Below are positions 2,133 to 64,000 of a stretch of 64,000 nt of DNA, in pieces. Below the pieces are notes generated by a model. That model made no database searches and was not told the DNA's origin. It saw only the letters and a list, made by a program, of their open reading frames with translations. Source of the DNA: Myxococcota bacterium (GTDB lineage: Bacteria; Myxococcota_A; SURF-8). Numbering within the stretch: the stretch's first letter is position 1; the number at the start of each line of letters is the position of its first letter. The stretch is from assembly GCA_963674735.2 (NCBI GenBank), contig CAXXQS010000001.1:64001-128000 (forward strand). The letters run 5' to 3'. Made by a program: the position numbers and the translations under genes.

Positions 2133-3317
2133 ATGCGATGCTTTCTATTCCTGAGTGTGATTTCTCTGTTGATGATGCTGGCCTGCTCCGAAACCGATGA
2201 TTCCGTGCAGCCAGACGGTGATGCGGACGTTCAACCGGATGGCGATATGGACGAGGAGTCCGAAGGGTCGGACGACGACTTCGTCGAAGCCGAGTTCGAG
2301 GCGGAAGGCTGTCCGGCGATTGCGGCGCCTAGCGGTCGTATCACGTTCTGGTACGAAGATAGCGATCTGAATCCCATTCTCGACGCCTTCGACGAGCTGG
2401 CTGCCTATCCGGTCGATCTGACCTTGGGACTGCATCAAGGCGAGGTAGACCCCGACAGCCTGGAGGCGGCGGTTCGGCAGATGCATGAAGCCGGGTTGAC
2501 CGTCAACATCTGGCCCCTGATCGAATACGGCGAAGGTTATTTCGCGAGTGTGAAAACCATCGACCTGTTCGAAGAGTGGTACCGTGAGCTGCTCGAGCTG
2601 ACGCAGGCCCGCTGCCTGCCGGTGTCGGCTTTCGTTTTCGATCTGGAGCCGCCCATTGATACCATGTTGGAGATGCAGCGCCTGTTCGGTGAGAGCAACG
2701 GCGATACCACGGCGGTGGTGGAATTTCTGGAGGCGCAGTACGAGCCCGCCGAGTATGCCGAGGGGCGTGCGCGTATGAAAACGATGATTGCGGAGACGCA
2801 GCAGGCCGGTTACCGCGTTACCGCCAGCACCTTGTTTTTCCTCATCGAAGACCCCTTGGACGCGGACGACGATATCCAGAAAGGCTTCAGCGTGCCCATC
2901 GACGACATGGGCTGGGACGAGCTGTCGTTTCAGGTGTACCGGTCGAGTTTCAACGATGTGCTCGGATCGTTTCTGGACCCCGACACCCTGTTGTCCCCCT
3001 TTGTGGTGTACGACTATGCCCTGAGTGCGATCGAGTATTACGGCGATCTGGCGTCCTTCGACATCGGCATTGTGGGCGATGAACGCTATAGTCCCGCCGA
3101 ATTTCAGCAGGATGTGGCGGCGGCCTGGGCGGCCGGTCTGTCTTCCGCGCGGCTCAATGTCTACAGTCTGCAAGGCGTGCTGCGAGACGAAACCCGTCCG
3201 TCGCAAGACTGGCTGGATCTTTCGGAGGTTTCGTCCTCCGTCCCCGAATCGGACATGACGGTCACGATTCTGCGTTCGGTGATTCGTTCGATGGACGAAC
3301 AGGCCGCGTTGCCTTAA
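2133..3317 (+). CDS. Lipoprotein with DGD linker and a putative TIM-barrel, glycoside hydrolase-like domain
   Basis: Lipobox LLMMLAC, DGDAD..DGDMD linker, FVFDLEPP and DELSFQVY segments reminiscent of GH18-like barrels; RBS AAGGAG. Confidence 0.6.
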   Translation: MRCFLFLSVISLLMMLACSETDDSVQPDGDADVQPDGDMDEESEGSDDDFVEAEFEAEGCPAIAAPSGRITFWYEDSDLNPILDAFDELAAYPVDLTLGLHQGEVDPDSLEAAVRQMHEAGLTVNIWPLIEYGEGYFASVKTIDLFEEWYRELLELTQARCLPVSAFVFDLEPPIDTMLEMQRLFGESNGDTTAVVEFLEAQYEPAEYAEGRARMKTMIAETQQAGYRVTASTLFFLIEDPLDADDDIQKGFSVPIDDMGWDELSFQVYRSSFNDVLGSFLDPDTLLSPFVVYDYALSAIEYYGDLASFDIGIVGDERYSPAEFQQDVAAAWAAGLSSARLNVYSLQGVLRDETRPSQDWLDLSEVSSSVPESDMTVTILRSVIRSMDEQAALP

Positions 3318-3360
3318 TATATTTGACGCTAATGCGAATTTAACAAGTTTCGGGTTTCTT

Positions 3361-10343: not shown

Positions 10344-11930
10344 ATGCGAAATGGTGAATGGCGATTTGTGTCGATCTCGATCCTGGCGGTCTTGCTGATT
10401 ACGCTCCTTCTCGTGGGTTGCGGAAGTGATAGCGACGATTCGGACGGAAGCGATGGCGATTCTGAAACCACCGACGGCGACACGGATGCTCCCGATACGG
10501 ATGGCGACCAGGATGGTGTCGCGGATGGCGACAGCGAAACATCCGATGGCGATCTGGAGCCTGAACAAGAAGCCGAAGCCGAGGCGCTGGGTCCGTATGA
10601 GGCCTTGGAAGGGCAGGGCTCGACGCTGCGCGAAATGCTAGGCGTTTCCACTCACATGTCCCAGCGCGAGGGAGAGAACGCGCAACGCGATTTTGAGTTC
10701 GAGCGCTATGTCGAGATCGGCGGCGCGAACATTCGCGAAGATTACCACTGGGAAACCATCGAGCCCGTGGACGACGAATGGCACTTCGAGGTCGTTGAGA
10801 AGCAGGTGGAAATGGCCAAGGAGCGCAACATGCGCATTCTGGCGATGTTGGCCTACGGGGTGGATTGGGCTACCGAGGATTCGAATGAGGATACCATCGA
10901 TCCGGCCAATTACGCTGATTTTGCCGGGAATCTGGCGGCGCATTTCTGCGATGACATCAAGGATTACGAACTCTGGAACGAGCCGAACATCTCCCGTTTC
11001 TGGTCGCCCGAACCCAACCCCGCCACGTATGGCGCGTTGTTCAAGGCCGGCGCGCTCGCCATCAAAGAAGTCTGCCCGGACGCGCGTGTTTACTACGGCG
11101 GCGTCTGTGCCTACTCACTCGATGATGTCACCGATTTGTGGTGGTTCATCTACGACCATATCGCGGCTTTCCCCGATATCTGCGACTATATGGACGTCAT
11201 TTCCATTCATCCCTACACGCTGATGCAGAAGCCCTCGCCCGAGTGGGACGGCAATTACGGCGAAGACTTGACCTTCGTGGGGCAGAGCGGCATTACGGCG
11301 GCGGCGCGCGAGGCTTTCGCGACGGCCGGTTGCGGCGATCTGCCGGTGGTCTACAGTGAACATGGCTGGCCGTCTTACGAACTGACCGAAGACGAACAGG
11401 GCTATTTCCTGGCGCGCTCGTATCTGTTGGCTGCGCGGGACAACGTGGAAAGCTATTACTGGTATACGTTCTGGGATGGCTATCCCACCACCGAGGGCCT
11501 GCGCCCGCACGAAGATTACTTCGGCCTGTTCGGATATCGTGGCGAGGACGGCACCAATCGTCGCGCCAAGGCGAGTTGGTATGCGATGAAGGGGCTGGCC
11601 GACGTTCTCGGCGACCATCGTTTCGCCCGCGATTTGAGCGAAACCTTCGAGTTGCCGACGGATGTCTACGCCTTGGCCTTCGTCAATGAGGACGGAGACT
11701 TGGCGTTGGCGGTGTGGGACGGGCGCGACAACCCCGACGAGGGAGTCGAGCCGCCGATGGAAGGCGGTCCCGACACGAGTTTCGACCTCGCGTTGCCCTT
11801 GCCCGACTGGGCCACCTCCGTTGGAATCTTCGATATCACCGGTGCGGAAGTCGAGTCGCGCGCGGTTTCGGGGAGTGTGGACCTCACGCTCACCCGCTCG
11901 GTGCTTTACATCAAACCGGTGGTGGAGTAA
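10344..11930 (+). CDS. Lipoprotein glycoside hydrolase, clan GH-A (GH39/GH5-like), with DGD linker
   Basis: Lipobox LLVGC, DGD-repeat linker, YELWNEPN acid/base, SIHPY, VVYSEHGWP nucleophile, FGL; RBS AAGGAG. Confidence 0.8.
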   Translation: MRNGEWRFVSISILAVLLITLLLVGCGSDSDDSDGSDGDSETTDGDTDAPDTDGDQDGVADGDSETSDGDLEPEQEAEAEALGPYEALEGQGSTLREMLGVSTHMSQREGENAQRDFEFERYVEIGGANIREDYHWETIEPVDDEWHFEVVEKQVEMAKERNMRILAMLAYGVDWATEDSNEDTIDPANYADFAGNLAAHFCDDIKDYELWNEPNISRFWSPEPNPATYGALFKAGALAIKEVCPDARVYYGGVCAYSLDDVTDLWWFIYDHIAAFPDICDYMDVISIHPYTLMQKPSPEWDGNYGEDLTFVGQSGITAAAREAFATAGCGDLPVVYSEHGWPSYELTEDEQGYFLARSYLLAARDNVESYYWYTFWDGYPTTEGLRPHEDYFGLFGYRGEDGTNRRAKASWYAMKGLADVLGDHRFARDLSETFELPTDVYALAFVNEDGDLALAVWDGRDNPDEGVEPPMEGGPDTSFDLALPLPDWATSVGIFDITGAEVESRAVSGSVDLTLTRSVLYIKPVVE

Positions 11931-13754: not shown

Positions 13755-15764
13755 CTACCGATTCGGCGTCAGGTCGACGGTCAGAACCACCCCCGAAACA
13801 CTCACGCCACCGTAGCCCTCTACGACAACGGTGTAATCCATATAGGCCTCAACCGACGCCGTCAGGTTCGAACAGGTGTCATACCCGCCATCATCATCAT
13901 ACGCGATTTCGCCGGATTGCGAATCGCTCAATCTGAGAATCGTGTCGCCGGGACAACCGCCCGACCCGTTCGAGGTGTACAGATTGAGACTGTAATTCTG
14001 GGTTGGCCTAAACGTCAACGTTACGGCTTTATTTTCTGGAATGTCGAAGGAATAATCGCCTGCCCCGGTAATCGTGATGGGAGGAAGCGGGCGATCTTCG
14101 ATGCAGTAGCACACATGCGACATGTGTGAATTGTGGTAGGCGGTCGAGCAACTGGTGAGGATCGTCGCTTCAACGTTCTCGATGGTCGAAAAATCGCCGG
14201 TCAGCAAGCAGCCGATTCCGGTTCCGTCTACCGGGATGGACTGGCTGTGATAGTAGACATAGCAAGAGTCGATGGGTCGCGGCGGTGCGCAGCTAAGCCC
14301 CCAGGAATCACAGATTTGATCGCAACTCCACGAGTTGGACGCCTGATTCGGCGGCCAGTTGCGGCTGACTTTGAAAATGCAGTTTCCCTCGTGGCAGTCT
14401 TCGGAAAAAAACGTGTAGCCGCTGTTGTCGAAGGTGTCCGGTGCCGGAAGATACGAATCCATCTCATCCCAACAACTGCGGTCGCATTCACCGCAGTCAT
14501 AAACGTCGCTGGCTAAATCTTCGCAGGTTCCAGCGCAGTTGGTTCCCACCCCTTCACAAGGATCGCCGCATTGACTGCTTTCACAGACGGCTTGGCCGCC
14601 GGTCGCATCGGGGCAAGCATTCTCGCAGACACCGCAGTTATCCGGGTCGCTTGAAAGATTGGTGGAGCCATCCGCGCATTGGCAGGTGGAGGATTCGCAA
14701 TGCATTCCGTTTTGGCAGGCATGGCCGCATTGACCGCAATGGTTGTCATCATCGGAGGTGTCGCGGCACAGCCCGCTGCATTCGGCTTCGCCGCTCGGGC
14801 ACCGACAGTTGCGGCTCGAACACACCTGGTCGTAGCGGCAAGTGATATCGCATCCGCCGCAATCGTTGGGGCTATCGAGATCCGTGCATGCACCGTCGCA
14901 GGCACCGTCCGAGCCGCAAGCGAGAGTGATTCCTTTGGAATCGGAAGCCGTATTGCCGCTCTGATCGTAAAACACCGCATTGAAAGTCCGGGTTATCGGG
15001 GCCAGGAAATTGATGGCGCGAATCAGATGAATATCATTCCATGAAACGGTCAGCGAGTAAGCCCCTTCGGAGGCCGAGGTGGAAAAGGCACCGTAGGTTT
15101 GGCCGTTTACCGCGTCTTTCAGGCTTCCGCCGATCAAGTCGTCGATTCCATCCGGGTCGGTCACGACGACGGTGAAAATCACGGATTGTCCCTCAGTGAT
15201 TTGCGTGACATTGGTATCGAAACTCAGCACGCGCGGCGGTTGTCCTTCGGTTCCCACGCATTGGCCATTTTGGCAGTCACCGGCTTGGCATTGACCGCAA
15301 CTGCCGCCGCAACCATCCGTGCCGCAGGCTTTGCCCGCGCAATCGGGAACGCAGGAATCGCCATCCTGATCGCCATCCGGAATGGAGGTGTCCTGATCGT
15401 CATCCTGGTCGCCGTCCGGAACCGTTGTGTCCTCGTCGCCGTCCGGTATGCTGGTTTCCTGATCGCCGTCGCTCGATTGAGGCTGGCAGTCGGGGCCGAG
15501 GACTTCGACGTAACCGGGATGACATTCGCAACGTGCTTGTTGCAAAACATCCAAATAGCAATAGCCGAAAAGGGAACAGGTGACGCCTTCGCAACTCGTT
15601 TTGACAGCCGGCAGGTCCGTCTCGGTTCCATCTCCGTCCGTGTCGGGATCGTCCTTTTTGTGGCGACTGCTGTCGGAACTGTCTTCCTGACACGCGGTCA
15701 TTCCCCCGATTAAACAGGCTGTAATGAGGAGGCAGGCGAATAAGCTAAAAAGACTGGGTTTCAT
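13755..15764 (-). CDS. Cys-rich mosaic surface lipoprotein (EGF-like, DGD linker, Ig-like, DxxNCGxC repeats, PPC-like C-terminus)
   Basis: Lipobox MTAC, DGDQ/DGDE repeats, CVPDCAGKACGTDGCGGSCG, four D..(N/H/D)CGxC repeats, C-terminal GDTILRL..AYDDDGG..CS; RBS AGGAG. Confidence 0.78.
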   Translation of the reverse strand: MKPSLFSLFACLLITACLIGGMTACQEDSSDSSRHKKDDPDTDGDGTETDLPAVKTSCEGVTCSLFGYCYLDVLQQARCECHPGYVEVLGPDCQPQSSDGDQETSIPDGDEDTTVPDGDQDDDQDTSIPDGDQDGDSCVPDCAGKACGTDGCGGSCGQCQAGDCQNGQCVGTEGQPPRVLSFDTNVTQITEGQSVIFTVVVTDPDGIDDLIGGSLKDAVNGQTYGAFSTSASEGAYSLTVSWNDIHLIRAINFLAPITRTFNAVFYDQSGNTASDSKGITLACGSDGACDGACTDLDSPNDCGGCDITCRYDQVCSSRNCRCPSGEAECSGLCRDTSDDDNHCGQCGHACQNGMHCESSTCQCADGSTNLSSDPDNCGVCENACPDATGGQAVCESSQCGDPCEGVGTNCAGTCEDLASDVYDCGECDRSCWDEMDSYLPAPDTFDNSGYTFFSEDCHEGNCIFKVSRNWPPNQASNSWSCDQICDSWGLSCAPPRPIDSCYVYYHSQSIPVDGTGIGCLLTGDFSTIENVEATILTSCSTAYHNSHMSHVCYCIEDRPLPPITITGAGDYSFDIPENKAVTLTFRPTQNYSLNLYTSNGSGGCPGDTILRLSDSQSGEIAYDDDGGYDTCSNLTASVEAYMDYTVVVEGYGGVSVSGVVLTVDLTPNR

Positions 15765-18344: not shown

Positions 18345-18737
18345 ATGAAACGCAAACAAGTTTTGGGCTGCATGCTTTTTATTCTGCTGTTGAGTGCCGT
18401 TATTGTTTTTGCCGGGTGCGGCGGCGATGATGATGAGAGTAGCGATGGCGATGAAGTCAATGGCGGCGAGCCGCTCGTGTGTGACGATGATTTGAGCGAT
18501 GGCGGATTCGGCGGCATGACCAAGGCGGGTTGCGACACGGTCCAGGGAGCCTGTGAGAATGCCGTAACCGTCGGTAATAATGAATGGTATCCCTGCACGG
18601 ACGATCCCGATTGCTGCTGCTACGATGAGCCTTTCGACGGTGTCGACGACGTCTATCCCTGCCAGTACGACAGCTGCACGCAGGACGGCTATTGCGACGA
18701 AAACTGCGGCGATGTGGAAGATCCGGATTGCGATTAA
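18345..18737 (+). CDS. Small Cys/Asp-rich lipoprotein, paralogue 1 (short linker)
   Basis: Lipobox VFAGC; about 85-aa domain PLVCDDDLSDGGFGG..PCTDDPDCCCYDE..DPDCD; RBS GGAGG. Confidence 0.8.
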   Translation: MKRKQVLGCMLFILLLSAVIVFAGCGGDDDESSDGDEVNGGEPLVCDDDLSDGGFGGMTKAGCDTVQGACENAVTVGNNEWYPCTDDPDCCCYDEPFDGVDDVYPCQYDSCTQDGYCDENCGDVEDPDCD

Positions 18738-18779
18738 CTTCTATTGAAAGATCAATCGATAATAAGGATAGGAAAAACC

Positions 18780-19277
18780 ATGAAACGCAAACAAGTTTTG
18801 AGCTGCTTGCTTTTCGTCCTGATGTTGAGTGCCGTTATTGTTTTTGCCGGGTGCGGTGATGATGATGATCCGAGCAGCGATGGCGACAATGCCGATGGCG
18901 ACGATCCCGACGGCGACGATCCCGACGGCGACGATCCCGATGGCGACGACCCCGACGGCGACGACCCCGACGGCGACGACCCCGACGGTGACGATCCCGA
19001 CGGTGACGACCCGCTCGTGTGTGACGATGATTTGAGCGATGGCGGCTTCGGCGGCATGGCCGCTGCGGGCTGCGACACGGTACAGGGCATCTGCGAGAAT
19101 GCCGTAACCGTCGGTAATAATGAATGGTATCCCTGCACGGACGATCCCGATTGCTGCTGTTACGATGAACCTTTCGACGGCGTCGACGACGTCTATCCCT
19201 GCCAGTATGACAGCTGCACACAGGACGGCTATTGCGACGAAAACTGCGGAGTGGTGGACGATCCGGATTGCGATTAA
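18780..19277 (+). CDS. Small Cys/Asp-rich lipoprotein, paralogue 2 (long DGDDP linker)
   Basis: Near-identical signal peptide and Cys domain to 18345-18737, plus eight DGDDP units. Confidence 0.82.
   Translation: MKRKQVLSCLLFVLMLSAVIVFAGCGDDDDPSSDGDNADGDDPDGDDPDGDDPDGDDPDGDDPDGDDPDGDDPDGDDPLVCDDDLSDGGFGGMAAAGCDTVQGICENAVTVGNNEWYPCTDDPDCCCYDEPFDGVDDVYPCQYDSCTQDGYCDENCGVVDDPDCD
18894..19013 (+). repeat. Coding tandem repeat, 8 x 15 bp (DGDDP)
   Basis: GAYGGYGACGAYCCS repeated eight times. Confidence 0.95.
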
Positions 19278-22963: not shown

Positions 22964-23965
22964 TCAGCGTGCGGCGTTTCCGTCGATGACCGACTGCAGC
23001 AGCGCCGGGTCGTCGGTCATCACGCCATCCACCCCCATGTCCATCCAGGCCTGCATCTCGGCGGCGTCGTTGATGGTCCAGATCTGCACGTTCACACCGA
23101 AACGGCCGGCGATCTCCAGTAATTCGGGTGAGATATCGGGCAGTTGAAAGATCGGGCAGGGCGGTTCGTAATCGGCGGCGGTCGCGTCGCTCAAGGTGGT
23201 GAAGGTTACCATTTCCGCCGTTCCCGCACCGGTGACGATACGCGGGTTTTTCTCGCGGATTTCCTGTACCACGGAATCGAAAAACGAGACCAGAATCACG
23301 CGCTCTTCCATCTCCGTATCGGCCAGAATCGCCAGAACGGCGTCGATGATGGGGGGATCGCTCTGCTTGATTTCGGCCGAGAAGATGGCCTCGGGGAAGG
23401 CGTCGAGCACCTCGCGCAAGGTCGCGACCTGCACCCCTTGTCCGCGGTAGGGGTAGGTTGCGCCGCCGTCGGGCGTAAAGGCATATCCGGCATCGAGGGC
23501 GCGCAGTTCGTCGAAGGTCATCTGATTGATGCGTCCTTCACCGTCGGTGATGCGGTTGACCGTCGCATCGTGATGCAACACGACCACCCCGTCGGAGGTT
23601 GCGTGCAGGTCCATCTCCAGCATATCCGCCCCCACGGCCAGCGCATTCTGGTAGGCCGGGAGGCTCTCTTCCGGGGCCAGCCGCCCGCCGCCGCGATGGG
23701 CGATGTTCAGAAAATCGTGCTGCCGCAGGGGATGATCCGCGCGGAAACCCCAGCGGTCGAGGACGTCTTCGGCTTCGCCGTCGGTCGTTTCGGCCTCCGC
23801 CTCCGCTTCGTCGTCATAATCGCCATCCGTTGCCGGGCTTTCGGAATCGCCGCCACTCTCCCGTTCGATATCCACATCGCCATCCACGCTCGCGTCGTCG
23901 CCTCCGCAGGCCACGAGAAAAAGCATCACGATTATGGCGAAAGCCGCGATCAAAACCCGATTCAT
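22964..23965 (-). CDS. Glycerophosphodiester phosphodiesterase lipoprotein with DGD linker
   Basis: Lipobox LVAC, IAHRGG..APEES, LEMDLH..DG..VLHHD, EIK, WTIND, GVDGVMTDDP. Confidence 0.9.
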   Translation of the reverse strand: MNRVLIAAFAIIVMLFLVACGGDDASVDGDVDIERESGGDSESPATDGDYDDEAEAEAETTDGEAEDVLDRWGFRADHPLRQHDFLNIAHRGGGRLAPEESLPAYQNALAVGADMLEMDLHATSDGVVVLHHDATVNRITDGEGRINQMTFDELRALDAGYAFTPDGGATYPYRGQGVQVATLREVLDAFPEAIFSAEIKQSDPPIIDAVLAILADTEMEERVILVSFFDSVVQEIREKNPRIVTGAGTAEMVTFTTLSDATAADYEPPCPIFQLPDISPELLEIAGRFGVNVQIWTINDAAEMQAWMDMGVDGVMTDDPALLQSVIDGNAAR

Positions 23966-37826: not shown

Positions 37827-38441
37827 CTATTGTGCCGGGGTGCAGGCGAATGCACCCATGACCGCGAAGTAGTTGCCGACGGTGGCGCTGTCTTGCAGGC
37901 GGCAGTCGAATTCGCCGCTGTTCTCGTCGAGCAGCGTCAGCGTGCAGGGCGTGATCGAACGATAATTGGCGAACACGCGTTCGCCGCCCTCATACGATTC
38001 TTCCACCGACCACAACATGCCGAGCGTGTTGCCCGGCAGGGCGTAGTCGCCGGGGGCGCTGTAGTCGTCGAGCGTGATGGTGAATTCGGACCAGGTGTCG
38101 TCGGTGGCGAATTGGGTGACGCTGAAGGTGCTGCCAGCGATCGCGCAACCGGACGGCAGCACGTCGTGGATCGCATAGACGTAGTCGCCTTCCAGGTCGC
38201 CGCTGTCCACGTTGAAGCACAGGCTGTCGGCGGTGGGTACGCAGCGTCCGGCCGGGGTGTCGCCGTCGGCGGGAGCATCGCCATCGGCTGGAGCATCGCC
38301 ATCGGCGGGCGTGTCGCCATCGACTTCGCCGTCCCCATCCACATCGCCGTCTTCACTGTCGTCGTCTCCGCCGCAACCGGCCACGACGACGGTCAGGGCT
38401 AGTACCAGAATCATCAGCATCCACCAGTTGGATCGGGTCAT
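37827..38441 (-). CDS. Lipoprotein with DGD(T/A)PA repeat linker
   Basis: Lipobox VAGC, DGDVDGDGEV then four DGD(T/A)PA units. Confidence 0.78.
   Translation of the reverse strand: MTRSNWWMLMILVLALTVVVAGCGGDDDSEDGDVDGDGEVDGDTPADGDAPADGDAPADGDTPAGRCVPTADSLCFNVDSGDLEGDYVYAIHDVLPSGCAIAGSTFSVTQFATDDTWSEFTITLDDYSAPGDYALPGNTLGMLWSVEESYEGGERVFANYRSITPCTLTLLDENSGEFDCRLQDSATVGNYFAVMGAFACTPAQ
38250..38321 (-). repeat. Coding tandem repeat, 4 x 18 bp (DGD[T/A]PA)
   Basis: Direct reading of the sequence. Confidence 0.9.
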
Positions 38442-53593: not shown

Positions 53594-56371
53594 TTATTCC
53601 ATAGCCAACGAAGACTGGGACCGGTTGATAATGCGTGGGGTCACGAAGATCAGAAGTTCCGTTTTCTCTTCCGTGGTCGACCGGCCTTTGAAAAGCCATC
53701 CGAGAATCGGGATCTTGGAGAAGAGCGGAACGCCTTGTTCGTTGACAGAGCGCGATTTGGTGTAGATACCACCGATAACCGTCGTTTCACCAGTGCGAAC
53801 CAGCACTTCGGTCGTCGCTTCTTTCTGAATCACAGCAGGATCGCCGAGCGCGTTGGTCCGCGAGAAGTCGGGCTCCTGCTTGGTGATCTTGAGTTTCATG
53901 ATGATGCTGCCGTCAGCGGTGATGTGCGGTGTGACGTCTAAAGACAGGTTCGCTTCAACCATTTTCGAAACCGGGATACCGGTAGACGATACCGAGGTGA
54001 TCGGAATCTGCACACCCTGCTCGATTTTGGCCGAGGTATTATCGAGAGTTGAAATTCGCGGAGAAGAAATGATCTTGATCTTTCCGGAAGACTCCATGGC
54101 GGCCAGGCGCAGGGTGAGGTTGGCGGTGTTGTTGGCGCTGCCGAGAGTCAGACCGATACCACCGGCCGGGGCGCGCGTCGAGGGGACGTTCACAATCCAG
54201 TTGGGCGGTTGAGTCGTATTCGCGATACCGGGGCTGCTCGTGGCATCCTGAGCACCGGAAAGGCCGACGCTTGAAGGGAAGGCCAGGCCGGTGGCGTTGC
54301 CGGTAGCCTGGCTGGCCGTGTAATAGCCGCCCCACTGGATACCGGTTGCGAAGTCGTTGGAAATATTGGCTTCAACGATCTTGGCTTCGATCATGACCTG
54401 CGGAGTTTGCAGATCCAGTTTGGAAACCAGGGATTCCGCTTTGGACAGCACTTCGTCGATGTCTTTGACGATGATGACGTTGGTTCGTTCATCGAAACTC
54501 GATGTGCCGCGAGCCGAGAGCAGGTCGCGAATCTGAGTGACCATCGCGCTGGCATTGGCATAGCTGACGGGGATCAGACGGACCGAAAGCGGTTCCAGTT
54601 CACGTTGCGCTTTGAGCTGATTGATGCGAAGTTCACGCTCGCGCTGAAGAACCGACATCGGGGCGACGCGAATGATGTTGCCTTGGCGTTCTTTGCCGAG
54701 TCCTTTGGACCGTAGAATGATGTCGAGGGCCTGCTGCCAGGGAACGTTGAGCAGGCGCACCGTTACGCTACCTCTGACGTCGTCGGAAGCGATGATGTTC
54801 AGCTTGCTGACGTCGGCAATCAGGCGTAACACATCGAGAATATCGGTGTTTTTCAGTTCGAGAGAGATGCGCTGACCTTTGGCTTCTTTCGCGCTGGCCT
54901 GATAGAGCTCGGCTGCGCCGCTGGCCAGACCCGCGGTGTCGGTGGTTTCGTATTCGATAACCGTTCCGCCGTCGGGAGTCAGGCTGATGCGCCCGCTGCC
55001 GTTGTCGGCGCTCGCAACCGCGTTTTCACGATCGAAGCGCCACATCAGTGTGTTGCCTTCCATACGGACGGAGTTTTTGGCTGCGTTGCGAGTTTGCACG
55101 ACGACCTTGGTCAGGTTCGAATCTTCATCCGCGACATAAGAACTGATCAGCGTGACCGGGCTATCGAATTCGCTGGTATCCAGACTCTGTTCCAGGTTCG
55201 CGGGAAGGGTCGTGTTCGGAAGTTCGAGCACGAGCTGATCGTCGGCCCCTTCCGCGAGGCGGTAGGCGACGTCGCCGGTCAGCTTGATTTCGACCGTCGA
55301 GGAGTTAACTTGATGTTTGAAGTCCAAACCGAGAACATGATGGCTGCCAGCCTGGACCGGAGCGGCCTGTTCAATGACCGGAGCGACTTCGCTTTTGGCC
55401 TTCGCAGGCGTTTCGGCTTTGGCGATCGCGGTCGGAGCGACGGCCGTGGTGAGAAGGGCGAGAGAAAGCTTGCCATCAACCGAATCGACATCGACAGATT
55501 GCGCGGATTTGGCCATATCAAGCACCACCCGCAGTTTTTCGGCGTGACTGCCCAGGCGGATGGAGGAAACGTATTCACCATCACCGTTGATCGAGCGTTT
55601 TTTGGTGCTGTTGCGCAGTCCGTAAAAATCGACAACCAAGCGGTCCGGATCACAGAGACGGATCACTTCGACCGAGCCGTCGGAAAGCGGCTTCGTGGTG
55701 GAAGCGCTGAGGCGGATGCCGTTGTCGGCCGGGAGCAAGGAAAGGGAAGTCAAGGAACCCTTGGAGGCTTTGCCACCGTAAGGATGAATGACAACCGCTT
55801 CACCGTCGGGGCATTCGAAAGGCTCCACCGTTGCGATAGGTGCCGCTTCTTCGATAGGAGCGGTTTCCGGTTCAGTCGAGATGGCCGCTTGCTCGGCGAC
55901 GACCGCTTCCGGGGCCGCGTTGGAGAGAGCGAAGCCTTCGGGATGAGCGATTAAAAGCTTGAGGGTGGCGTCATCTTCACGCACGCTGAATTCCGCCTCG
56001 CGTTTAAAGCCGATCATGACGCGCGTCATGGACTTGTTGTCACGGGAAAATTCATTGGTGGTGATAACCGTGATCAGGCCGTCGTTTACTTCGCTGACAA
56101 CCGGAACGCCGGACGTTTTACAGTCGGCGATGTCAACGAGCAGGCGCTGCGGATCCGACATGCGGAAGACGTTGTAAACAAGCTTCCGTGACCCCGCCAA
56201 AGAGACGGTCGTTGTGCCGTCGACAGCATCGACACTTACGGACGTCAACTCATTGATAGCAGGCGTTTGCGCCTCCTGATCGGGTAGTACCGTTTGGTTG
56301 TTGGAGGCACAGGCAACCAGGAAGGCTGCAACCGCGATCAACAGTGGAAGAATTCTGTTGAGTGACATCAT
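53594..56371 (-). CDS. pilQ: Type IVa pilus secretin with AMIN domains
   Basis: Lipobox LVAC, DPQRLLVD/DPDRLVVD AMIN motifs, VPWQQALDIIL, PQVMIEAKIVEA, GVPLFSKIPILGWLF, ELLIFVTPRI. Confidence 0.96.
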   Translation of the reverse strand: MMSLNRILPLLIAVAAFLVACASNNQTVLPDQEAQTPAINELTSVSVDAVDGTTTVSLAGSRKLVYNVFRMSDPQRLLVDIADCKTSGVPVVSEVNDGLITVITTNEFSRDNKSMTRVMIGFKREAEFSVREDDATLKLLIAHPEGFALSNAAPEAVVAEQAAISTEPETAPIEEAAPIATVEPFECPDGEAVVIHPYGGKASKGSLTSLSLLPADNGIRLSASTTKPLSDGSVEVIRLCDPDRLVVDFYGLRNSTKKRSINGDGEYVSSIRLGSHAEKLRVVLDMAKSAQSVDVDSVDGKLSLALLTTAVAPTAIAKAETPAKAKSEVAPVIEQAAPVQAGSHHVLGLDFKHQVNSSTVEIKLTGDVAYRLAEGADDQLVLELPNTTLPANLEQSLDTSEFDSPVTLISSYVADEDSNLTKVVVQTRNAAKNSVRMEGNTLMWRFDRENAVASADNGSGRISLTPDGGTVIEYETTDTAGLASGAAELYQASAKEAKGQRISLELKNTDILDVLRLIADVSKLNIIASDDVRGSVTVRLLNVPWQQALDIILRSKGLGKERQGNIIRVAPMSVLQRERELRINQLKAQRELEPLSVRLIPVSYANASAMVTQIRDLLSARGTSSFDERTNVIIVKDIDEVLSKAESLVSKLDLQTPQVMIEAKIVEANISNDFATGIQWGGYYTASQATGNATGLAFPSSVGLSGAQDATSSPGIANTTQPPNWIVNVPSTRAPAGGIGLTLGSANNTANLTLRLAAMESSGKIKIISSPRISTLDNTSAKIEQGVQIPITSVSSTGIPVSKMVEANLSLDVTPHITADGSIIMKLKITKQEPDFSRTNALGDPAVIQKEATTEVLVRTGETTVIGGIYTKSRSVNEQGVPLFSKIPILGWLFKGRSTTEEKTELLIFVTPRIINRSQSSLAME

Positions 56372-56436
56372 CTATCTCTCCTTAGCTTAGACGGCTCTCC
56401 AGCTAACGTTGCGAGCTATAAAATCATCGAAAAATA

Positions 56437-57015
56437 CTAATCAAGCGAAATGGCTCCCTCCGCCTCTTCACCTACCGGTGAAAGGGTGGTTGAGGCATCA
56501 TCCGGTCGAATCGTTTTAACTGGAAGTTTCATTTCGATCTGGTTGGTAACCTTCTGACCGTTAGGCAGACGGGATTGTTCCAACACCACGACCGAATCGC
56601 GCTTGATTTTAACCACTTTTCCCCAATTCCGGCCGATCAGCGTACCGGTTTTGATGGTGTAGCTCATGCCGTTTGGCGCAACAACGATGGCCGCCGGCGA
56701 TGAAATACCCCACAAAATAGCCGTAACCGAAAGGGAGTCGATCTCGAAGTTCTGCAGAGGGCTGAGAATCGATTCTTCGGAAGCCATCTCCATTTCTCCG
56801 CTGTTTTCATCGAAAATGGAGCGGAAGGGATCCCGTTTGCCGATCGACGTGTAAACGTAATCCGATTCGGGTACGGCCTTGTCCGATGGCTTGACGGTTT
56901 CCGGAGCGGCAGTTTGTTTGGCTGACTGTTTTTTCTTTGTGCTCTTGCTGATGGTGATTTCACCACCACAACTGGCAATAAAGAACACCAAGACAAGCAG
57001 CGTGAGGAACCGCAT
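56437..57015 (-). CDS. pilP: Type IVa pilus lipoprotein
   Basis: Lipobox IASC, Y..IGKRDPF, SPLQNF, G..IGRNWGKVVKI. Confidence 0.92.
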   Translation of the reverse strand: MRFLTLLVLVFFIASCGGEITISKSTKKKQSAKQTAAPETVKPSDKAVPESDYVYTSIGKRDPFRSIFDENSGEMEMASEESILSPLQNFEIDSLSVTAILWGISSPAAIVVAPNGMSYTIKTGTLIGRNWGKVVKIKRDSVVVLEQSRLPNGQKVTNQIEMKLPVKTIRPDDASTTLSPVGEEAEGAISLD

Positions 57016-57100
57016 GATGCCTCCCTTTTGCACGCCGTAACATTTCAAGTTCGTGGTTTCAAACGTGTTCACGATGGTTGCCTCTCGTTTCACGCTATTT

Positions 57101-57706
57101 TCATTTCTTCTTTTTGGCGGGCGGATCCGGTTGCGGAATAAACCGGAACGTTGTCGCCACGCAGTTGGTCATCAGCCGCTTCTTGCTGGATTCCATTTTA
57201 TTGGCGGATGAAGGCGCAAAATTGAAATTGTCGATATTGACGATACGTGAGAGCTTACCGACCGCATCGAAAAAGTTTGTGATCTCGTTGTAGGAACCAA
57301 TCAATCTCAATCCGACCGGCACTTTGGCGTAAAAGTCCTGCGGAACCTCGGGTTTGGGTTGGAACGTCAGGATTTCGAGCCCGGATTTCTGAGCCAGCGA
57401 GGAAATCTTTTGTAGCAGGGTCGGGATTTCACTCCGATTGGGAAGAAGCTTGATTGCTTTTTGCAAATCTTGGTTGAGCTGCTCAACCTCCCGTTTGTAC
57501 TGGGAAAGATCTCCAACCATCTTCTTCTTTTCTTCCAGGCTGGATTCAAGGTCGGCAATCCGATTCGCGAGCTTTTCCTGCTTCTCGATTTTGGGGTTAT
57601 AGCCCATCATATAATAGGCCACGACCAGGAGCAGGCAAATCAGGAGCATTCCGCCAATCTTTTGAATGGCAGGGATGCGTGAAAACTTGTCGAAAAAGGC
57701 GTCCAT
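57101..57706 (-). CDS. pilO: Type IVa pilus assembly protein
   Basis: N-terminal TM, coiled coil, LLPNRSEIPTLL, FYAKVP, GSY, LSRIVNI. Confidence 0.94.
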   Translation of the reverse strand: MDAFFDKFSRIPAIQKIGGMLLICLLLVVAYYMMGYNPKIEKQEKLANRIADLESSLEEKKKMVGDLSQYKREVEQLNQDLQKAIKLLPNRSEIPTLLQKISSLAQKSGLEILTFQPKPEVPQDFYAKVPVGLRLIGSYNEITNFFDAVGKLSRIVNIDNFNFAPSSANKMESSKKRLMTNCVATTFRFIPQPDPPAKKKK

Positions 57707-57727
57707 GGTTGACTCCCCTTAATCAGG

Positions 57728-58282
57728 CTAGGAGCGCGGAACCGAATATTTAAGATGCAAACGGAAGCTCATCACCGGCATGCTGACATCCTTGGTTTTG
57801 CCCTGAGTGATGTTGACCAGTTTGATATCACTAAAGAAAGGCGATGCTTCAAGGTTTTTCATGAAGATGGCGATTTCTTTATTATCGGTGGCCATTCCGT
57901 TCATGTTCAACGTGTTGCCGGACTGGTTCAGGCTTTCCAGCCAGACTTTCTTGGGAATCACCGTGCTTAGCTCGTCGAGAATACGCACGGGACCTGTTTT
58001 ACCTTTGCGGAGCAGTTCGATGACATCAAGCTTCTTCTTCAGGCTGGTTTTCTTTTCCTGAATGGTGTTGATATCGCCGATCAGCTCTTCGAGTCGTTTC
58101 ATCTCTTTAGAGATTTCGGCTTCTTTCTGCTGGAGAATCGCGACTTTCTCCTGCTCGCCGCTGTGAATCGAATAGAGGAGCAGACCCAGAGCGACCAAGA
58201 TGATGACAAACAGCAGCAGTTGCTGTTGACCGGCGCCCCGTTTCTTTCTTTGCTTAGTCGGTAGAAGGTTGATTCGAATCAT
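57728..58282 (-). CDS. pilN: Type IVa pilus assembly protein
   Basis: MIRINLLP, TM, LDELS..IP..VWL, FMKNLEASPFF. Confidence 0.95.
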   Translation of the reverse strand: MIRINLLPTKQRKKRGAGQQQLLLFVIILVALGLLLYSIHSGEQEKVAILQQKEAEISKEMKRLEELIGDINTIQEKKTSLKKKLDVIELLRKGKTGPVRILDELSTVIPKKVWLESLNQSGNTLNMNGMATDNKEIAIFMKNLEASPFFSDIKLVNITQGKTKDVSMPVMSFRLHLKYSVPRS

Positions 58283-59337
58283 TACGCGTCAAACCTCCGC
58301 AGCCCGAGACCAACGGCCACCGAGGCCATCGGCGCGACGTTCCGAATGAAGTTCACATCAAAGATTTTCTCGTTGATGCGGATATTTCGGAACGGGTCCA
58401 TGAATTCAACCGGAATTCCGGTGCGACTTTCAAGTACCTTGTAAAGAGTCGATATTTTCGAGGTGCCGCCGCACAGGTAAATCTTGGAAATGTCGCTGTC
58501 CTGGTTGGTGGCCGAGAAGAATTCCAGCGAACGCCGGATCTCGGATGCCAGGTTTTCCGAAACCTCCTGGATCACGCGTTCGACCTCCTGGGGGATGACC
58601 GAATCGGCGTCTACGCCCGGCTCGCCGCCCAGCTTGAGATCTTCCGCTTCCTCATAGCTGAGATTCAACTGCTTTTGAATCTCTTCGGTAAACTGATTGC
58701 CGCCGATGGTGATGTCGCGGGTGAAGGTGGTGATACGATTGGCCACGATCACGATGTTGGTCACCGATGCGCCGATGTTGATCAGCGCAATGGTTTCTTC
58801 AGGCGGAAGCGAGTAGTTGATTTCAAAGGCGTTTTCAACCGCAAAGGCGTCGACATCGACCGTTACGGGAGTGAGACCGGCCTCACTGACGACCGCCACG
58901 TAGTCGTAGATCATATCCTTCTTACCCGCCACCAAAAGAACGTCCATTTGGCCCGGCTCGCTGCCGGTCGGGTTGAGGATCTGCACGTCGACGTTAACGT
59001 CGTTGATGTCAAAGGGAATGTACTGCTCGGCTTCCCATTGAAGCGAGTTTTCCAGTTCCGCCTTGGTCATCTGCGGGAGAGAGATCTTTTTAATGATGAC
59101 CGAGTGACCGGAAATGGACAGGGCACACTCCTTGGTCTTGATCATCTGGGATTGAATCAGCCTGCGAATCGCATCCACCACCGCACCCGAGTTCATCAGA
59201 GCCCGGTCGACGATGGTTTGCGGGGGAAGCGGAGCAATACCGAAGTTGACGAGTTCGTATCCCCTCTTACTCCGTTTCAGGCTGATGACCTTGACGGAGC
59301 TGGAACCGATATCCAATCCGATGAGTCCTTTGGCCAT
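58282..59337 (-). CDS. pilM: Type IVa pilus actin-like assembly protein
   Basis: IGLDIGSSSVK, EAEQYIPF, INIGASVT, IGGNQFT, LCGG, VAVGLGLR. Confidence 0.96.
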   Translation of the reverse strand: MAKGLIGLDIGSSSVKVISLKRSKRGYELVNFGIAPLPPQTIVDRALMNSGAVVDAIRRLIQSQMIKTKECALSISGHSVIIKKISLPQMTKAELENSLQWEAEQYIPFDINDVNVDVQILNPTGSEPGQMDVLLVAGKKDMIYDYVAVVSEAGLTPVTVDVDAFAVENAFEINYSLPPEETIALINIGASVTNIVIVANRITTFTRDITIGGNQFTEEIQKQLNLSYEEAEDLKLGGEPGVDADSVIPQEVERVIQEVSENLASEIRRSLEFFSATNQDSDISKIYLCGGTSKISTLYKVLESRTGIPVEFMDPFRNIRINEKIFDVNFIRNVAPMASVAVGLGLRRFDA

Positions 59338-59886: not shown

Positions 59887-62800
59887 TCATTCCCACACCC
59901 AACCGACAACGTCTTCAAAAATATAACCATTGCTGCTCAATTGCGACAACTCAAGGTCGCTGGTCGTATAGATATGATCGGTTAGGTCGGGATTGACCAT
60001 CTGGTAGAGCGGGGTGGATTCGGGGTCGCCGGATGTGAGCGCCAGGTAGCCGAGGATCGGACCCTGAATATAACCTAGAGCGAGATAATCGGAGATGGTT
60101 TGCGCATTGGCGCTGTAAACCGTGTCGGTCGTGGTGGTGTTCGTGAGTTCGACGAAGGCCGCCAGTCCGGGCTGGGCTTCGGTGTACAGAACAAGGGGTG
60201 CGGCGGCGGTGTCGAGGGTGAAACCGCTCGGCGGGCTGGGATCGGCACTCAAACGATGATCCAAGTCGAAGCCGGGGATGACTTCGCGCTCGAAGCGATA
60301 AACGTTTGTCCGGCAGATTTCATCGGTTTGGCCGTCGCAGTCGTTGTCCTGGCCGTCGCAGGTTTCGTCGTTGCCGCTGTAGGTGGGATGTTCGGGCTCG
60401 TTCACCGAGCAGATGTGGCCTCCTTCGGCGGTACACAGCCAGATGCCTTCGGCTGTGGCGCAAGCGCCGGTTCCGTTGCAGATTTCCGGTGGATTGACGC
60501 CGTACCCTTCGTCCACCGCGCCATCGCAGTTGTTGTCGGTTCCGTCGCAAAGCTCATGGCTTCCGTCGTAGGCGCTGCCGCCGATGTCGGTGGAGCAGCG
60601 GTCGTCGCCCATGCCGTCGCATTCGTAGACGCCGACGCCGCAAGCCCCCACGCCGTCACAGGCGGCTCCGAGGGGGAAGTCTTCGTCGGTGGAGCCGTCG
60701 CAGTCGTTGTCCAGGTCGTCGCATTGTTCGGGCGATCCTTCGTATTCGCTGCCGCCCTCCTCGGTGGAACAGCGTGTGGAAAACTCGTTGGCGCATTCAA
60801 GCATGCCGGTGCCGCAGACACCTTCACCCACACACAGGCCGCCGATGCCGAAGTTCTCGTCGGTGAAACCGTCGCAATCGTTGTCCAGACCGTCGCACAG
60901 CTCCTGGCGGGCGACGTGGGTGCTGCCGCCGGGATCGCTGGAACAGAGCCGGGCGACCAGCGACGCGCATTCCCATAAACCCGAGCCGCACTCGCCGGTT
61001 CCGGTACACGGCTCGTCGATTTGGAAATCTTCATCGATAGCACTATCGCAGTCGTTGTCGCTACCGTCGCAGAGCTCGGGACGGGATTGACTGTTGCTGC
61101 CGCCGATATCGGTGGAGCAGCGGCGAGAATTCAGCGAGGCGCATTCCCACAAGCCGATGCCGCAGTCCCCGACGCCGTCGCAGGGCTGGCCGATCTGCCA
61201 GTCTTCGTCGACGGAGCCGTCGCAGTCGTTGTCGTTGCCGTCGCAAACTTCCGGAGCGCCGTCATATTCGCTGCCGTCGGGCAGGGTGGAGCAGCGCACC
61301 GTTGTTTCCGAGGCGCATTCCCACACGCCGTCTCGACAAACGCCCTCGCCCGAACAAGTCAGCCCGAGGCCGAATGTTTCGTCCGTCAGACCATCGCAGT
61401 CGTTATCCAGATTGTCGCAAAGCTCATCCTGACTTTGATCCTGGCTGCCGCCACGGTCGGTCGAGCAGCGGGCCGCGAAGGCGTTGCGGCATTCGTACAC
61501 GCCGCTGCCGCATTCCCCGACGCCGTTACAGCTTTCACCGACCGAAAAATCTTCGTCGGTGAGTCCGTCGCAGTCTTCATCGAGGTTGTTGCAGGCTTCG
61601 GCGTTGGCCACATACTCGCTGCCGCCCGGGTTCGTGGAGCAGAGCAGTTCGCCGGGATCGGTGGAGTTGCATTCGGTCACGCCCACCGGGCATTGGCCCT
61701 CACCTTGGCAGAATTCACCGAGTATGAAGCCTTCGTCTACGGCGCAGTTGCAATTGTCGTCGAGGCCGTTGCAGATCTCGTCGTCGTTGGGATGGCCCGA
61801 GCAGGGCGTCTCGCAGTCGTTGGGATTGTCGTCGCAATTGTAAAAGCCGCTTGGACAGGCCTGTGCCTCGCCGCGCAGGGTGAAAACAAAGGGGCTGCGA
61901 TCGAGATCGTTGCTTTCGATGCGCAGGGTTTCTTCGAAGTCGTCCGCGCTACTTGGAACGAACGACACGAGGATGTCGTAGTGGTCGCCCGAACTGTCGA
62001 AGGGACGCAGAAGCGCGGGTAACGGCGTTTCCGGCAAAACGGCCAGAAAAGCGCTTGCGAATCCGGGGTCGGGGCTGATCGACGACAGCAGCAGGGGGCC
62101 TTCGCCGCTGTTTTTCACCGTTAGCACCACCGGTCCGCGGCTGCCGCCGATGAACGTGCTCTCGAATTCATAAGGGGTGGCGGGCGAGATGTCGAGCACC
62201 GGGTCGATACCCGTTCCCGTGAGCGACACTTCCACATGCCGCCATTCGGGGCGCGTATCGTTGCTGTCGAGATAGAACAATCCGTCGATTGTACCGGTGG
62301 AATCGGGTGTAAAGACGATATCCAGATCGAGGGAGCTGTTCCAGGGTAGCGGATCGGCGACGGCGGTCGGATCGACGCTGAATGACGAGGAACCCTGCGT
62401 GATACCGAGTTCTTCGAGAGTCAGAGCCGCGCGGCCGGTGTTGGTGACGGTCAGGGTGATGGTCTTGCTCGATCCGAGTTGGACGTCGCCGAAGGTCAGG
62501 GCGTCGGTTTCGCTGATTTCCAGTGTGGCGGCCGTGCCACGACCCGACAACCCGAGCTCGACGCTGCCGGCCGAGTTGTCCGATTCGATGATCAGGCGAT
62601 CGATGATCGAGCCTTCCTCTTCCGGCTCGAAGGCGAGGGTGAACTGGCGCTCCCCGCCGCCCCCCGCCAGTGTAAACGGAAACAATCCGGCTTCGTCCAC
62701 GATCCGATAAGGGCTGTCGGCCATGGCGAAATCAGCCTCAAGCACGTCCACCGGCCAGCCCCCGGCATTGCGCAGGGTGACATTCAACTCGGGCGATTCG

Positions 62801-64000
62801 CCCACCCCCACGTCGCCGAACTGCAGGACGGTCGGGCTGACGGTCAGGTTGGAGATGGCGCCTTCCCCGCGAATGGCGATATCGCGGTCGGGGAAAAACA
62901 GGTCGTTGCTGTTGACACGCAGTTGGGTGCTTTCGATGCCGAGTTGGGCGGTGGGAGCGTAGCGGATCATCAGTTCGAGGTAGTCGCCGACCGCCAACGT
63001 CTGTCCTTCGGCGGGCAGTGCGGGGGGATTCAGCAACGAGAAGGGACCGTCGGTTTCGTCCAGCATGAAGCCCGATATCGTGACCGGCGATTCGCCGCAG
63101 GCCTCCAACTGCACCGGCCGTAGGCTTTCCGTGCCCACTTTGACGGTGCCGAATTGAACGGGATCGGGATTGATGCAGAGTGTGCGCGCGGCACCGTAGC
63201 CGCTGAGTGCCACCGAAAGAGTCTGATCGGCTTCGTCCTGGCTGTCGCTCTGGATGGTCAGGGTGTCGGCGGTTTCACCCCAGCGTTGGGGCGAAAAGAT
63301 CACCGCCACAATCCGGCTTTGATTGGGAGCGATTGAAAAAGGCGGTTGAGGCGACGAAGGGGTCAAGCTGAAATCGCCGCCGGATGTTCCGACGATGTCC
63401 AGATCGTAGACGGTCAACAGGCGGTTGTCATCGCTGGAGCCGGGCCGGTTACGAATGACGATCTGCAGGGGGGCCGATTCCGCTCCCACTTCGGTGGTGT
63501 CGAATTCAAGGGCCGCCGGATCGGTTTCGATGTTGGCCACACCTTTATAATCGCTGTCGAGCAGGACTTCGGCCACACGCAGGGTGGGGTCGTTGGAATA
63601 GACCAGCAGGCTGGCCTGGTCGTCGCCACCATCGCTGGGCGAGTAGGTGATACGCACATCCTGCGACTCGCCGGGGCGGATGCGCAAGGTGTCGCCGGGG
63701 GTGAGATCGATCAGAAATTCCTCGGCGTGATCGACCACGTGCAGATCGTATACTTCCAGGATCAGATTACCTGCGTTGCCGATGGTGAGGGATCGCTCGG
63801 AGCTCTGGCCAAGGACCACCGCACCGAAACTCACCCGTTCGGGCAACTGGATCTCGGCGTGCGGGACACCGTCGCCATCCACCTCGCGGTCGATGGGGAA
63901 TTCGCAATCCGTATCTTCTTCGCGCTGCAGCCAGCAGGTGCTGAATTCGTCGCAACGTCGCAACTCGGCGCATTCCAGCAGGGGTCGTGTGATACAGGTT
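59887..64000 (-). CDS. Large surface protein: six ASH/choice-of-anchor-D domains, nine MopE-like CDGxDNDCDG repeats, DUF5648-like C-terminus; 5'-truncated by the window edge
   Basis: Frame open to the window end; repeated (L/V).FG.V..G and SND motifs; E.CD..DNDCDG..DE repeats; PLYQMVNP..DHIYTT..GYIFEDVVGWV. Confidence 0.85.
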   Translation of the reverse strand, partial: TCITRPLLECAELRRCDEFSTCWLQREEDTDCEFPIDREVDGDGVPHAEIQLPERVSFGAVVLGQSSERSLTIGNAGNLILEVYDLHVVDHAEEFLIDLTPGDTLRIRPGESQDVRITYSPSDGGDDQASLLVYSNDPTLRVAEVLLDSDYKGVANIETDPAALEFDTTEVGAESAPLQIVIRNRPGSSDDNRLLTVYDLDIVGTSGGDFSLTPSSPQPPFSIAPNQSRIVAVIFSPQRWGETADTLTIQSDSQDEADQTLSVALSGYGAARTLCINPDPVQFGTVKVGTESLRPVQLEACGESPVTISGFMLDETDGPFSLLNPPALPAEGQTLAVGDYLELMIRYAPTAQLGIESTQLRVNSNDLFFPDRDIAIRGEGAISNLTVSPTVLQFGDVGVGESPELNVTLRNAGGWPVDVLEADFAMADSPYRIVDEAGLFPFTLAGGGGERQFTLAFEPEEEGSIIDRLIIESDNSAGSVELGLSGRGTAATLEISETDALTFGDVQLGSSKTITLTVTNTGRAALTLEELGITQGSSSFSVDPTAVADPLPWNSSLDLDIVFTPDSTGTIDGLFYLDSNDTRPEWRHVEVSLTGTGIDPVLDISPATPYEFESTFIGGSRGPVVLTVKNSGEGPLLLSSISPDPGFASAFLAVLPETPLPALLRPFDSSGDHYDILVSFVPSSADDFEETLRIESNDLDRSPFVFTLRGEAQACPSGFYNCDDNPNDCETPCSGHPNDDEICNGLDDNCNCAVDEGFILGEFCQGEGQCPVGVTECNSTDPGELLCSTNPGGSEYVANAEACNNLDEDCDGLTDEDFSVGESCNGVGECGSGVYECRNAFAARCSTDRGGSQDQSQDELCDNLDNDCDGLTDETFGLGLTCSGEGVCRDGVWECASETTVRCSTLPDGSEYDGAPEVCDGNDNDCDGSVDEDWQIGQPCDGVGDCGIGLWECASLNSRRCSTDIGGSNSQSRPELCDGSDNDCDSAIDEDFQIDEPCTGTGECGSGLWECASLVARLCSSDPGGSTHVARQELCDGLDNDCDGFTDENFGIGGLCVGEGVCGTGMLECANEFSTRCSTEEGGSEYEGSPEQCDDLDNDCDGSTDEDFPLGAACDGVGACGVGVYECDGMGDDRCSTDIGGSAYDGSHELCDGTDNNCDGAVDEGYGVNPPEICNGTGACATAEGIWLCTAEGGHICSVNEPEHPTYSGNDETCDGQDNDCDGQTDEICRTNVYRFEREVIPGFDLDHRLSADPSPPSGFTLDTAAAPLVLYTEAQPGLAAFVELTNTTTTDTVYSANAQTISDYLALGYIQGPILGYLALTSGDPESTPLYQMVNPDLTDHIYTTSDLELSQLSSNGYIFEDVVGWVWE

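Follow-up and report, generated by a model that had tools for sequence, protein, structure and literature searches.

The SD repeats of staphylococcal ClfA, ClfB and SdrC/D/E are Asp-rich, low-complexity repeats beside the anchor, which are common to different adhesive domains and are described in the accessible part of the literature as disordered and extended. Even when their sequences differ widely, staphylococcal stalks show similar behaviour, that of extended disordered chains, according to the available portion of the source (PMC10367597). The Gram-negative lipoproteins RcsF, NlpD and Pal possess a disordered segment from the lipidated Cys to the folded domain, and for such linkers in E. 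coli length and disorder are stated to count, not sequence (10.1101/2021.01.05.425367, as far as accessible). Furthermore, the lipoprotein export signal (LES) of Bacteroidota consists of negative residues just after the Cys, within the first five to ten residues, as given in the available sections of two reports (PMC13692018, PMC12853789). Here we analyze a 64-kb stretch of contig CAXXQS010000001.1 (the whole stretch is called the window), in which the tripeptide Asp-Gly-Asp (DGD) recurs in the tethers of lipoproteins and a further exported protein. The analysis supports the view that exported proteins share DGD as a lineage-typical motif, kept at the protein level and distinct from generic acidity, and ten proteins with nine unrelated payloads stand as its carriers.

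In the window, 48 translated gene rows were assigned by eye to 15 lipoproteins, six other exported proteins and 27 cytoplasmic or inner-membrane proteins. The lipoproteins contain 36 DGD (one of them inside a catalytic domain) compared with 7.3 expected from composition and 11.6 +/- 3.2 in 15-residue local shuffles (p 0.001, 1000 shuffles), whereas the cytoplasmic and inner-membrane proteins contain 2 vs 2.3 expected. This enrichment had been foreseen in a first-pass annotation of the stretch and is borne out within the window. The six other exported proteins, one of which was translated across a frameshift and contributed no DGD, hold 6 DGD vs 3.2 (p about 0.09) and are not significantly enriched as a class. 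As repeats inflate raw totals, each protein was also counted once, for DGD in the 40 residues after the lipobox Cys (Cys+1..+40). Nine of the 15 lipoproteins carry it there, with a shuffle mean of 3.89 (p 0.0003, or 0.005 when any tripeptide may win); leaving out the paralog 18780 (see below) gives 8 of 14 (p 0.0004). The per-protein count over whole lipoproteins is weaker in 15-residue local shuffles (9 observed, mean 6.5, maximum 12).

The word itself is exact, as DGD occurs 24 times in Cys+1..+40, DDG once, and EGD and EGE not at all. This favours the earlier view that the motif is more than generic acidity; the control then offered, the acidic linkers of the SgmX-like and PEGA proteins, is weak, because these linkers hold almost no Gly and are expected to contain merely 0.32 and 0.04 DGD. 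The first DGD lies at Cys+8..+11 in seven of the nine DGD lipoproteins, and six of the 15 lipoproteins have none. The proposed location close to the lipobox Cys or a C-terminal anchor holds for the Cys+1..+40 segment but not for clusters far from any anchor (residues 99-136 of the 15764 protein, residues 292-298 of the 34644 protein). Acidic residues occupy 2-4 of the six positions +2..+7 in all nine DGD lipoproteins, and 2-3 of six in four of the six lipoproteins without DGD; this acidic patch is part of the stretch that precedes DGD and not of DGD itself. Neither Pfam nor NCBIfam has a model that covers the tether in the window proteins or in the array proteins that were scanned. The carriers, named here by their start positions, are listed together with one excluded protein and a control operon.

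2133..3317 (+), lipoprotein; DGD at 2214-2222 and 2238-2246 (Cys+10, +18), Glu-rich segment after them.
10344..11930 (+), lipoprotein with a PslG/GH39-like glycosidase domain (E 2e-15); five tether DGD in 10452-10553, the first at Cys+11, and a sixth at 11691 within the glycosidase domain.
13755..15764 (-), Cys-rich lipoprotein with an MXAN_6577-like stretch (below cut-off); DGD at 15630-15638 (Cys+18), five further DGD in an inter-domain linker (15357-15470).
18345..18737 (+), small Cys-rich lipoprotein, tandem paralog of the 18780 gene; one DGD at 18444-18452 (Cys+9).
18780..19277 (+), its paralog; nine DGD units at 18879-19007, encoded by a 15-bp tandem array (9.1 copies, 92% matches).
22964..23965 (-), GDPD lipoprotein; DGD at 23876-23884 (Cys+8) and 23819-23827.
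24412..25392 (+), metallophosphoesterase lipoprotein; DGD at 24559-24567 (Cys+26), preceded in the tether by an Asn variant.
27889..29867 (-), CSLREA/choice-of-anchor-Q gene split into four reading-frame pieces; four DGD at 28048-28251, ahead of a tail made up of Cys, a hydrophobic part and basic residues.
34644..37244 (+), lipoprotein with choice-of-anchor-D (Ig-like) domains; DGD at 34746-34754 (Cys+11), two more in an inter-domain stretch (35517-35537).
37827..38441 (-), lipoprotein; six DGD units at 38259-38351, the first at Cys+8; predicted disordered tether and all-beta payload.
59887..63999 (-), giant Ig-like/Cys-rich protein with its N-terminus beyond the window; a single DGD at 63871-63879; not counted.
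53594..59337 (-), pilM-N-O-P-Q-like operon, lineage marker and control for DGD.

At least eleven DGD proteins had been proposed initially, and for the first ten in the list coordinates and motifs proved right. The giant protein drops out, with one DGD in 1370 amino acids vs 1.6 expected. Since 18345 and 18780 are tandem paralogs (payload DNA 92.5% identical), the unrelated payloads number nine instead of ten. Among the glycosidases that had been named, 10344 is supported, while the 2133 payload has no match in Pfam, NCBIfam or PDB. The payload of the 38441 protein is confidently predicted (AlphaFold2) to be an all-beta domain of ~135 residues, with conserved Cys, for which Foldseek gave no match in PDB at E up to 0.001.

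The distribution of the word was followed with the GDPD lipoprotein as query, using the best 120 of 1208 matches. The query held its own tether, which may raise DGD carriers in rank; clade membership was taken from the catalytic-domain tree, not from the tether. In this quick tree, the window GDPD and 21 others form a clade (Shimodaira-Hasegawa-like approximate likelihood ratio test, 100). Inside it, 19 of the 21 have a callable tether and 11 of these 19 contain DGD (26 copies vs a shuffle mean of 3.8, maximum 12). Outside, a tether could be called in 55 of 98 rows, and only one of the 55 contains DGD (2 copies vs 5.1). The automatic call missed 43 of the 98 outside and 2 of the 21 clade rows (no Cys call, or a tether of <10 residues); P0033, another outside row, shows one DGD in the raw listing. 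In 7 of the 11 DGD-bearing clade homologs, which were found by their catalytic domain, the first DGD is at +10/+11.

Within the GDPD payload tree, grouping the 13 DGD carriers as a single clade is rejected (approximately unbiased test, p-AU 2e-51), DGD-bearing and DGD-less sisters are interleaved, the starred branches force at least six changes, and in a 32-row subset the DGD label is no more clustered than in shuffles (120 of 500 as low). DGD is labile on this tree. The protein P0023 was considered as proof that the tether follows the host and not the payload; it is only suggestive, as its joining the main clade is not rejected (p-AU 0.073). Of four homologs found with the metallophosphoesterase, one has a single DGD in the N-terminal tether, one has DGD only near the C-terminus and two have none. 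Among the matches listed from a genome-wide scan with the GDPD alignment, none belonged to the DGD clade (best identity 48%), and the 80 loci listed (1.25 Mb, mostly from other phyla) contain no triple-DGD array in any frame.

In groups outside the clade, tethers occupy the same position and are enriched in other words: ETE/TET/SES in a group that includes Plesiocystis pacifica (P0105), PDA/DAP, and DAT/DLG/DAG. Tethers with other words are likewise encoded at L001, L007 and L080, three of 14 loci that were examined for lipoproteins, and the lipoproteins of L001 and L080 repeat D-T words. Related lipoproteins (GDPD homologs P0024-P0120 and these three loci) show the group-specific words ETE/TET, PDA/DAP, DAT/DLG, D-T-D and D-A-D. 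Such equivalent tethers were missed in the first-pass annotation, and this set of tether dialects may be the broader finding.

The position of the first DGD, at Cys+8..+11 in seven of nine window proteins and at +10/+11 in seven of 11 GDPD-clade homologs, would suit a surface-export or sorting signal, i.e., a Myxococcota counterpart of the LES, and the PilQ and PilP lipoproteins, which lack DGD, would fit as well (their acidic residues at +2..+7 number 0 and 1). As in the LES, the DGD lipoproteins of the window have 2-4 Asp/Glu at +2..+7; in contrast to it, the first DGD comes no earlier than +8, the word is repeated, and the host is Myxococcota-like, not one of the Bacteroidota, in which the LES goes with LptZ-dependent export. 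The patch right after the Cys is the better match to the LES, yet it is also present in window lipoproteins without DGD. Moreover, the word reaches 28 copies, forms internal and C-terminal clusters, and underwent at least six gains or losses among the GDPD homologs. A role as export signal is highly doubtful in our judgement. Its occurrence between domains and its gain and loss in sister GDPD proteins make an obligatory signal unlikely, whereas the fixed start near Cys+9 leaves room for a contributing role in export. The extracellular-matrix lipoprotein signal of Myxococcus xanthus, Ala at +7 (PMC3222651, accessible part), was also considered and rejected, being found in none of the 15 window lipoproteins.

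The 29867 protein may resemble the MYXO-CTERM proteins of M. xanthus (PMC11980579, as far as available), as it appears to have a disordered region beside a C-terminal tag of Cys, transmembrane segment and basic residues; most DGD carriers differ from these proteins in being N-terminal lipoproteins. The tail is MYXO-CTERM-like by eye, TIGR03901 was not listed at E up to 1, and the only matches were weak (PEP-CTERM, E 0.02; the tail of NF045523, E 0.064). In the accessible portions of the myxosortase papers (10.1101/2023.06.07.544157, PMC11980579), no repeated word was found beside MYXO-CTERM tags.

The composition of the tethers was described with a profile made from eight window signal-plus-tether segments, which matched 157 representatives at E up to 0.001. 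The best 150 of these were examined, and 139 were analyzed after three window proteins and eight without a Cys call had been dropped. They comprise 48 DGD arrays, 34 tethers of an alternating D-[ATS]-D type and 57 of neither type. Because the set was chosen with a DGD-rich profile, which favours intact units, it describes the motif and cannot prove enrichment; its source organisms may include some outside the clade. A payload scan of 95 proteins included 45 of the 48 array proteins; matches were obtained for 14 of these and span 12 payload types that are unrelated to one another (metallophosphoesterase, lamin-tail, PKD/beta-helix, Ig, Lcl_C, PEBP, PETase-like, FG-GAP, penicillin amidase, M28 peptidase, alpha/beta hydrolase, AhpC/TSA).

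In the 48 arrays, all of them from outside the window, DGD accounts for 440 of 470 Gly-centred tripeptides (DGE 7, EGE 2). The arrays begin a median of nine residues past the Cys and comprise 2 to 28 units of DGD plus 1-4 variable residues (162 spacer types), spaced by 5 or 6 in 316 of 392 cases. They consist of 40% Asp, 19% Gly, 3% Ser and <1% Lys, Arg and aromatic residues together. The flanking positions are variable (entropy 2.7-3.3 bits), with Pro/Thr/Ala at 73% of -1 positions (Pro alone 35%) and Thr/Asp/Ser at 54% of -2 positions. Neighbouring spacers differ at 49% of sites; 154 of 239 equal-length pairs are different, and 71 of 310 pairs differ in length. The alignment of four 38441 homologs (37-42% identity) keeps five DGD units as invariant columns, with variable spacers between them. 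In P0127 (last 16 residues) and P0123 (C-terminal region), DGD is located after the folded domain with no anchor behind it.

In comparison with the SD repeats, the unit is DGD plus 1-4 residues with a period of 5-6 and not a dipeptide, the anchor is a lipobox lipid and not LPXTG, and the fixed word contains no Ser. NCBIfam MSCRAMM models weakly match the D-T-D/D-A-D tethers of P0131, P0149 and P0229; no MSCRAMM match was obtained for the six long DGD-array proteins tested. The difference from E. coli linkers is that DGD tethers conserve one word and are also placed between domains.

An invariant word among free spacers, with Asp not swapped for Glu, might be read by a lineage-specific envelope protein, either a modifying enzyme or a docking partner. 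The confinement of DGD to exported proteins, its bias toward the GDPD clade among the best 120 matches (11 of 19 tethers vs 1 of 55) and the DGD cluster at the free C-terminal end of P0127 would agree with such a reader. A precedent is offered by SdgB, which recognizes DSD in the SD repeats of staphylococci and for which three residues form the minimal site (PMC8561734, available part). SD repeats take O-linked N-acetylglucosamine at DSD by SdgB/SdgA, whereas DGD is a fixed word without a hydroxyl residue, so that a modification would hit Asp itself or the Asp-Gly bond. A Ser/Thr sequon within the spacers fails, as 164 of 369 spacers lack Ser and Thr and 11 of the 48 arrays have at most 25% such spacers. 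The O-glycosylation sequon of Bacteroidota, D(S/T)(A/I/L/V/M/T) as given in the accessible text of PMC8729774, was rejected, as it fits just 77 of the 440 units. Furthermore, no candidate reader gene was found within the window, and the word has been lost in sister GDPD orthologs; a dedicated reader seems rather unlikely to us. Asp-Gly is prone to succinimide formation, and we regard it as quite improbable that DGD is recognized by an envelope enzyme, so far undescribed, which acts on Asp itself (for example by placing a carbohydrate, lipid or amine on the side chain, or by deliberate isoaspartate formation), the other words in Myxococcota being sites of co-evolving readers. The first-pass proposal of a dedicated sorting or display system is not upheld by the present data: six of 15 lipoproteins lack DGD, sisters are interleaved, arrays occur between domains, and the window yielded no reader gene. 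A dedicated display system is unproven.

At the DNA level, 15- and 18-bp tandem arrays in the window show slippage, and the paralogs 18345 and 18780 differ by one vs nine DGD units via the 15-bp array, which suggests that slippage sets the unit number. It is conceivable that selection merely wants an acidic, flexible, protease-poor linker and that the order DGD is a by-product of slippage and cassette copying. The visible slippage, the dispensability of DGD in close GDPD sisters and the 71-83% similarity of short DNA stretches in the tethers of different genes could be taken in this sense, but the latter can follow from shared codons. Agreement of the Asp wobble bases between genes is 0.50 and 0.46 vs a random expectation of 0.50 (654 pairs), i.e., at the random rate, so recent DNA copying does not explain the common word and is not what holds it. 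In addition, spacers drift at 49% of sites between neighbours, DGD hardly at all. We therefore consider a neutral dialect improbable; the simplest reading of these sequences is that protein-level selection keeps the word.

The best explanation appears to be a cation-binding, disordered, polyanionic stalk without a dedicated reader, although we see the chances of its being right and wrong as about balanced. The segment between the Cys and the first folded domain is predicted to be disordered and fits the definition of a lipoprotein N-terminal linker. In the AlphaFold2 model of the 38441 protein, residues 14-64 have a predicted local distance difference test (pLDDT) score <50 and no secondary structure, while the payload is confident. 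P0266, modelled without an alignment, has a mean pLDDT of 40.9 and no secondary structure, but this low-confidence single-sequence model is not evidence on a metal-induced fold. The usual layout is the lipobox Cys, a short acidic patch, the first DGD at about Cys+8 to +11, further DGD units with 1-4 small residues each and, in many cases, a stretch rich in Glu. A strongly anionic, length-tunable stalk of this kind would keep the payload off the lipid anchor or the next domain. The sequence [T/S/D]-[P/A]-D-G is favoured in type I beta-turns, and the residues preferred at -1 and -2 fit this preference. Each [T/S/D]-[P/A/T]-D-G-D unit may thus be a beta-turn-prone element, and its paired Asp carboxylates may weakly hold Ca2+ or Mg2+ in a geometry other than that of the canonical Dx[DN]xDG loop; this is probably what selection preserves. 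Chains without Lys, Arg and aromatic residues also resist common proteases. Slippage would tune the unit count, and new payloads might acquire a signal-plus-tether cassette from resident genes, by which DGD would become the dialect of a lineage. No dedicated reader is required for such a stalk, and homologs with other words at the same place are expected if its job is general.

Short Asp/Gly loops commonly chelate Ca2+, and the DGD units share with the Dx[DN]xDG loops (EF-hand, thrombospondin type 3, calcium blades) the richness in Asp and Gly and the D-G-D itself. The canonical loop was nevertheless rejected, with 34 matches vs 25.6 +/- 4.8 in shuffles, an unfit register and DxDGDG in only 7 of 440 units. 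A broader definition, taken from the available part of PMC3123361, was rejected as well (27 matches vs 46.2 +/- 6.4 in shuffles). Of the Ca2+-stiffened tether suggested at first, the tether fits best among the options offered, while the canonical loop is not found. A regular beta-solenoid was rejected too, since periods mix within arrays and Pro occupies 35% of -1 positions.

Several points weigh against the stalk. PDB sequence searches with two tether profiles found no solved structure that resembles the array, and a physical role alone leaves unexplained why this lineage uses one exact word and others use different ones. At its C-terminal end, P0127 has a second DGD cluster with nothing to hold apart, though this record may not be complete. 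The set of 48 arrays came from a DGD-rich profile and is biased toward intact units, and surface exposure of the DGD proteins is assumed from their payloads.

The host is an uncultured Myxococcota-like clade. This placement follows from the PilM relatives (tree over the best 44 rows), where 15 close clusters at 76-91% identity are followed by a drop to <=71%, from the single named close PilM match, a metagenome-assembled genome called 'Myxococcales bacterium', and from the SgmX-like protein (NCBIfam E 7e-94, below cut-off) and the pilM-Q-like operon encoded in the window. The window, part of a 2.69-Mb contig, has a GC content of 0.56, and Rfam gave no match in it. The 29867 gene has a GC content of 0.43 vs 0.52-0.56 in its flanks and may have been transferred from a lower-GC relative; its frame breaks may be sequencing indels, and its DGD sit in the C-terminal frame. 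A phosphoketolase-like gene (5236-7600, +) shifts frame near 7400 within a C run, which hints at homopolymer assembly errors. At 20409-20989, a 285-bp unit is present in two tandem copies that are 98% alike and reach the 3' end of the gene 20972-21847; it has no match in a plasmid collection and may reflect recent duplication or an artefact of assembly.

Other neighbours of the DGD genes include a radical SAM gene (709-2040, +; weakly HxsC-like, below cut-off) directly upstream of the 2133 lipoprotein, which nothing ties to the tether, and a TIGR02147-family gene (above cut-off; 33697-34647, +) that overlaps the start of the 34644 lipoprotein gene. Three small Cys-rich acidic lipoproteins without Pfam matches are encoded side by side at 18345-20249 (+), the third of which (19704) has no DGD. 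The PEGA protein, exported but not a lipoprotein, contains a Gly-free acidic repeat of Asp, Glu and Phe (32288-32391, -; 18-bp unit, ~4 copies), which is a different type of linker.

The DGD tether is a real, lineage-typical linker motif under apparent selection, one dialect among several acidic stalks. In a literature search, for which most subscription papers were beyond reach, nothing was found on DGD or on lineage-specific tether words in Myxococcota, nor any description of what the present comparison shows, namely that acidic tethers, although otherwise interchangeable, contain words specific to the lineage in related bacteria. If a reader does exist, it would represent a new protein-modification or surface-docking system, and if this reader modifies Asp, the words would amount to a code by which surface proteins are decorated or anchored across the phylum. 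In any case, the tether word serves as a cheap marker that flags likely surface lipoproteins and helps to assign orphan contigs to this uncultured clade, and the cultured relative Plesiocystis pacifica, with its different word, makes the general question testable.

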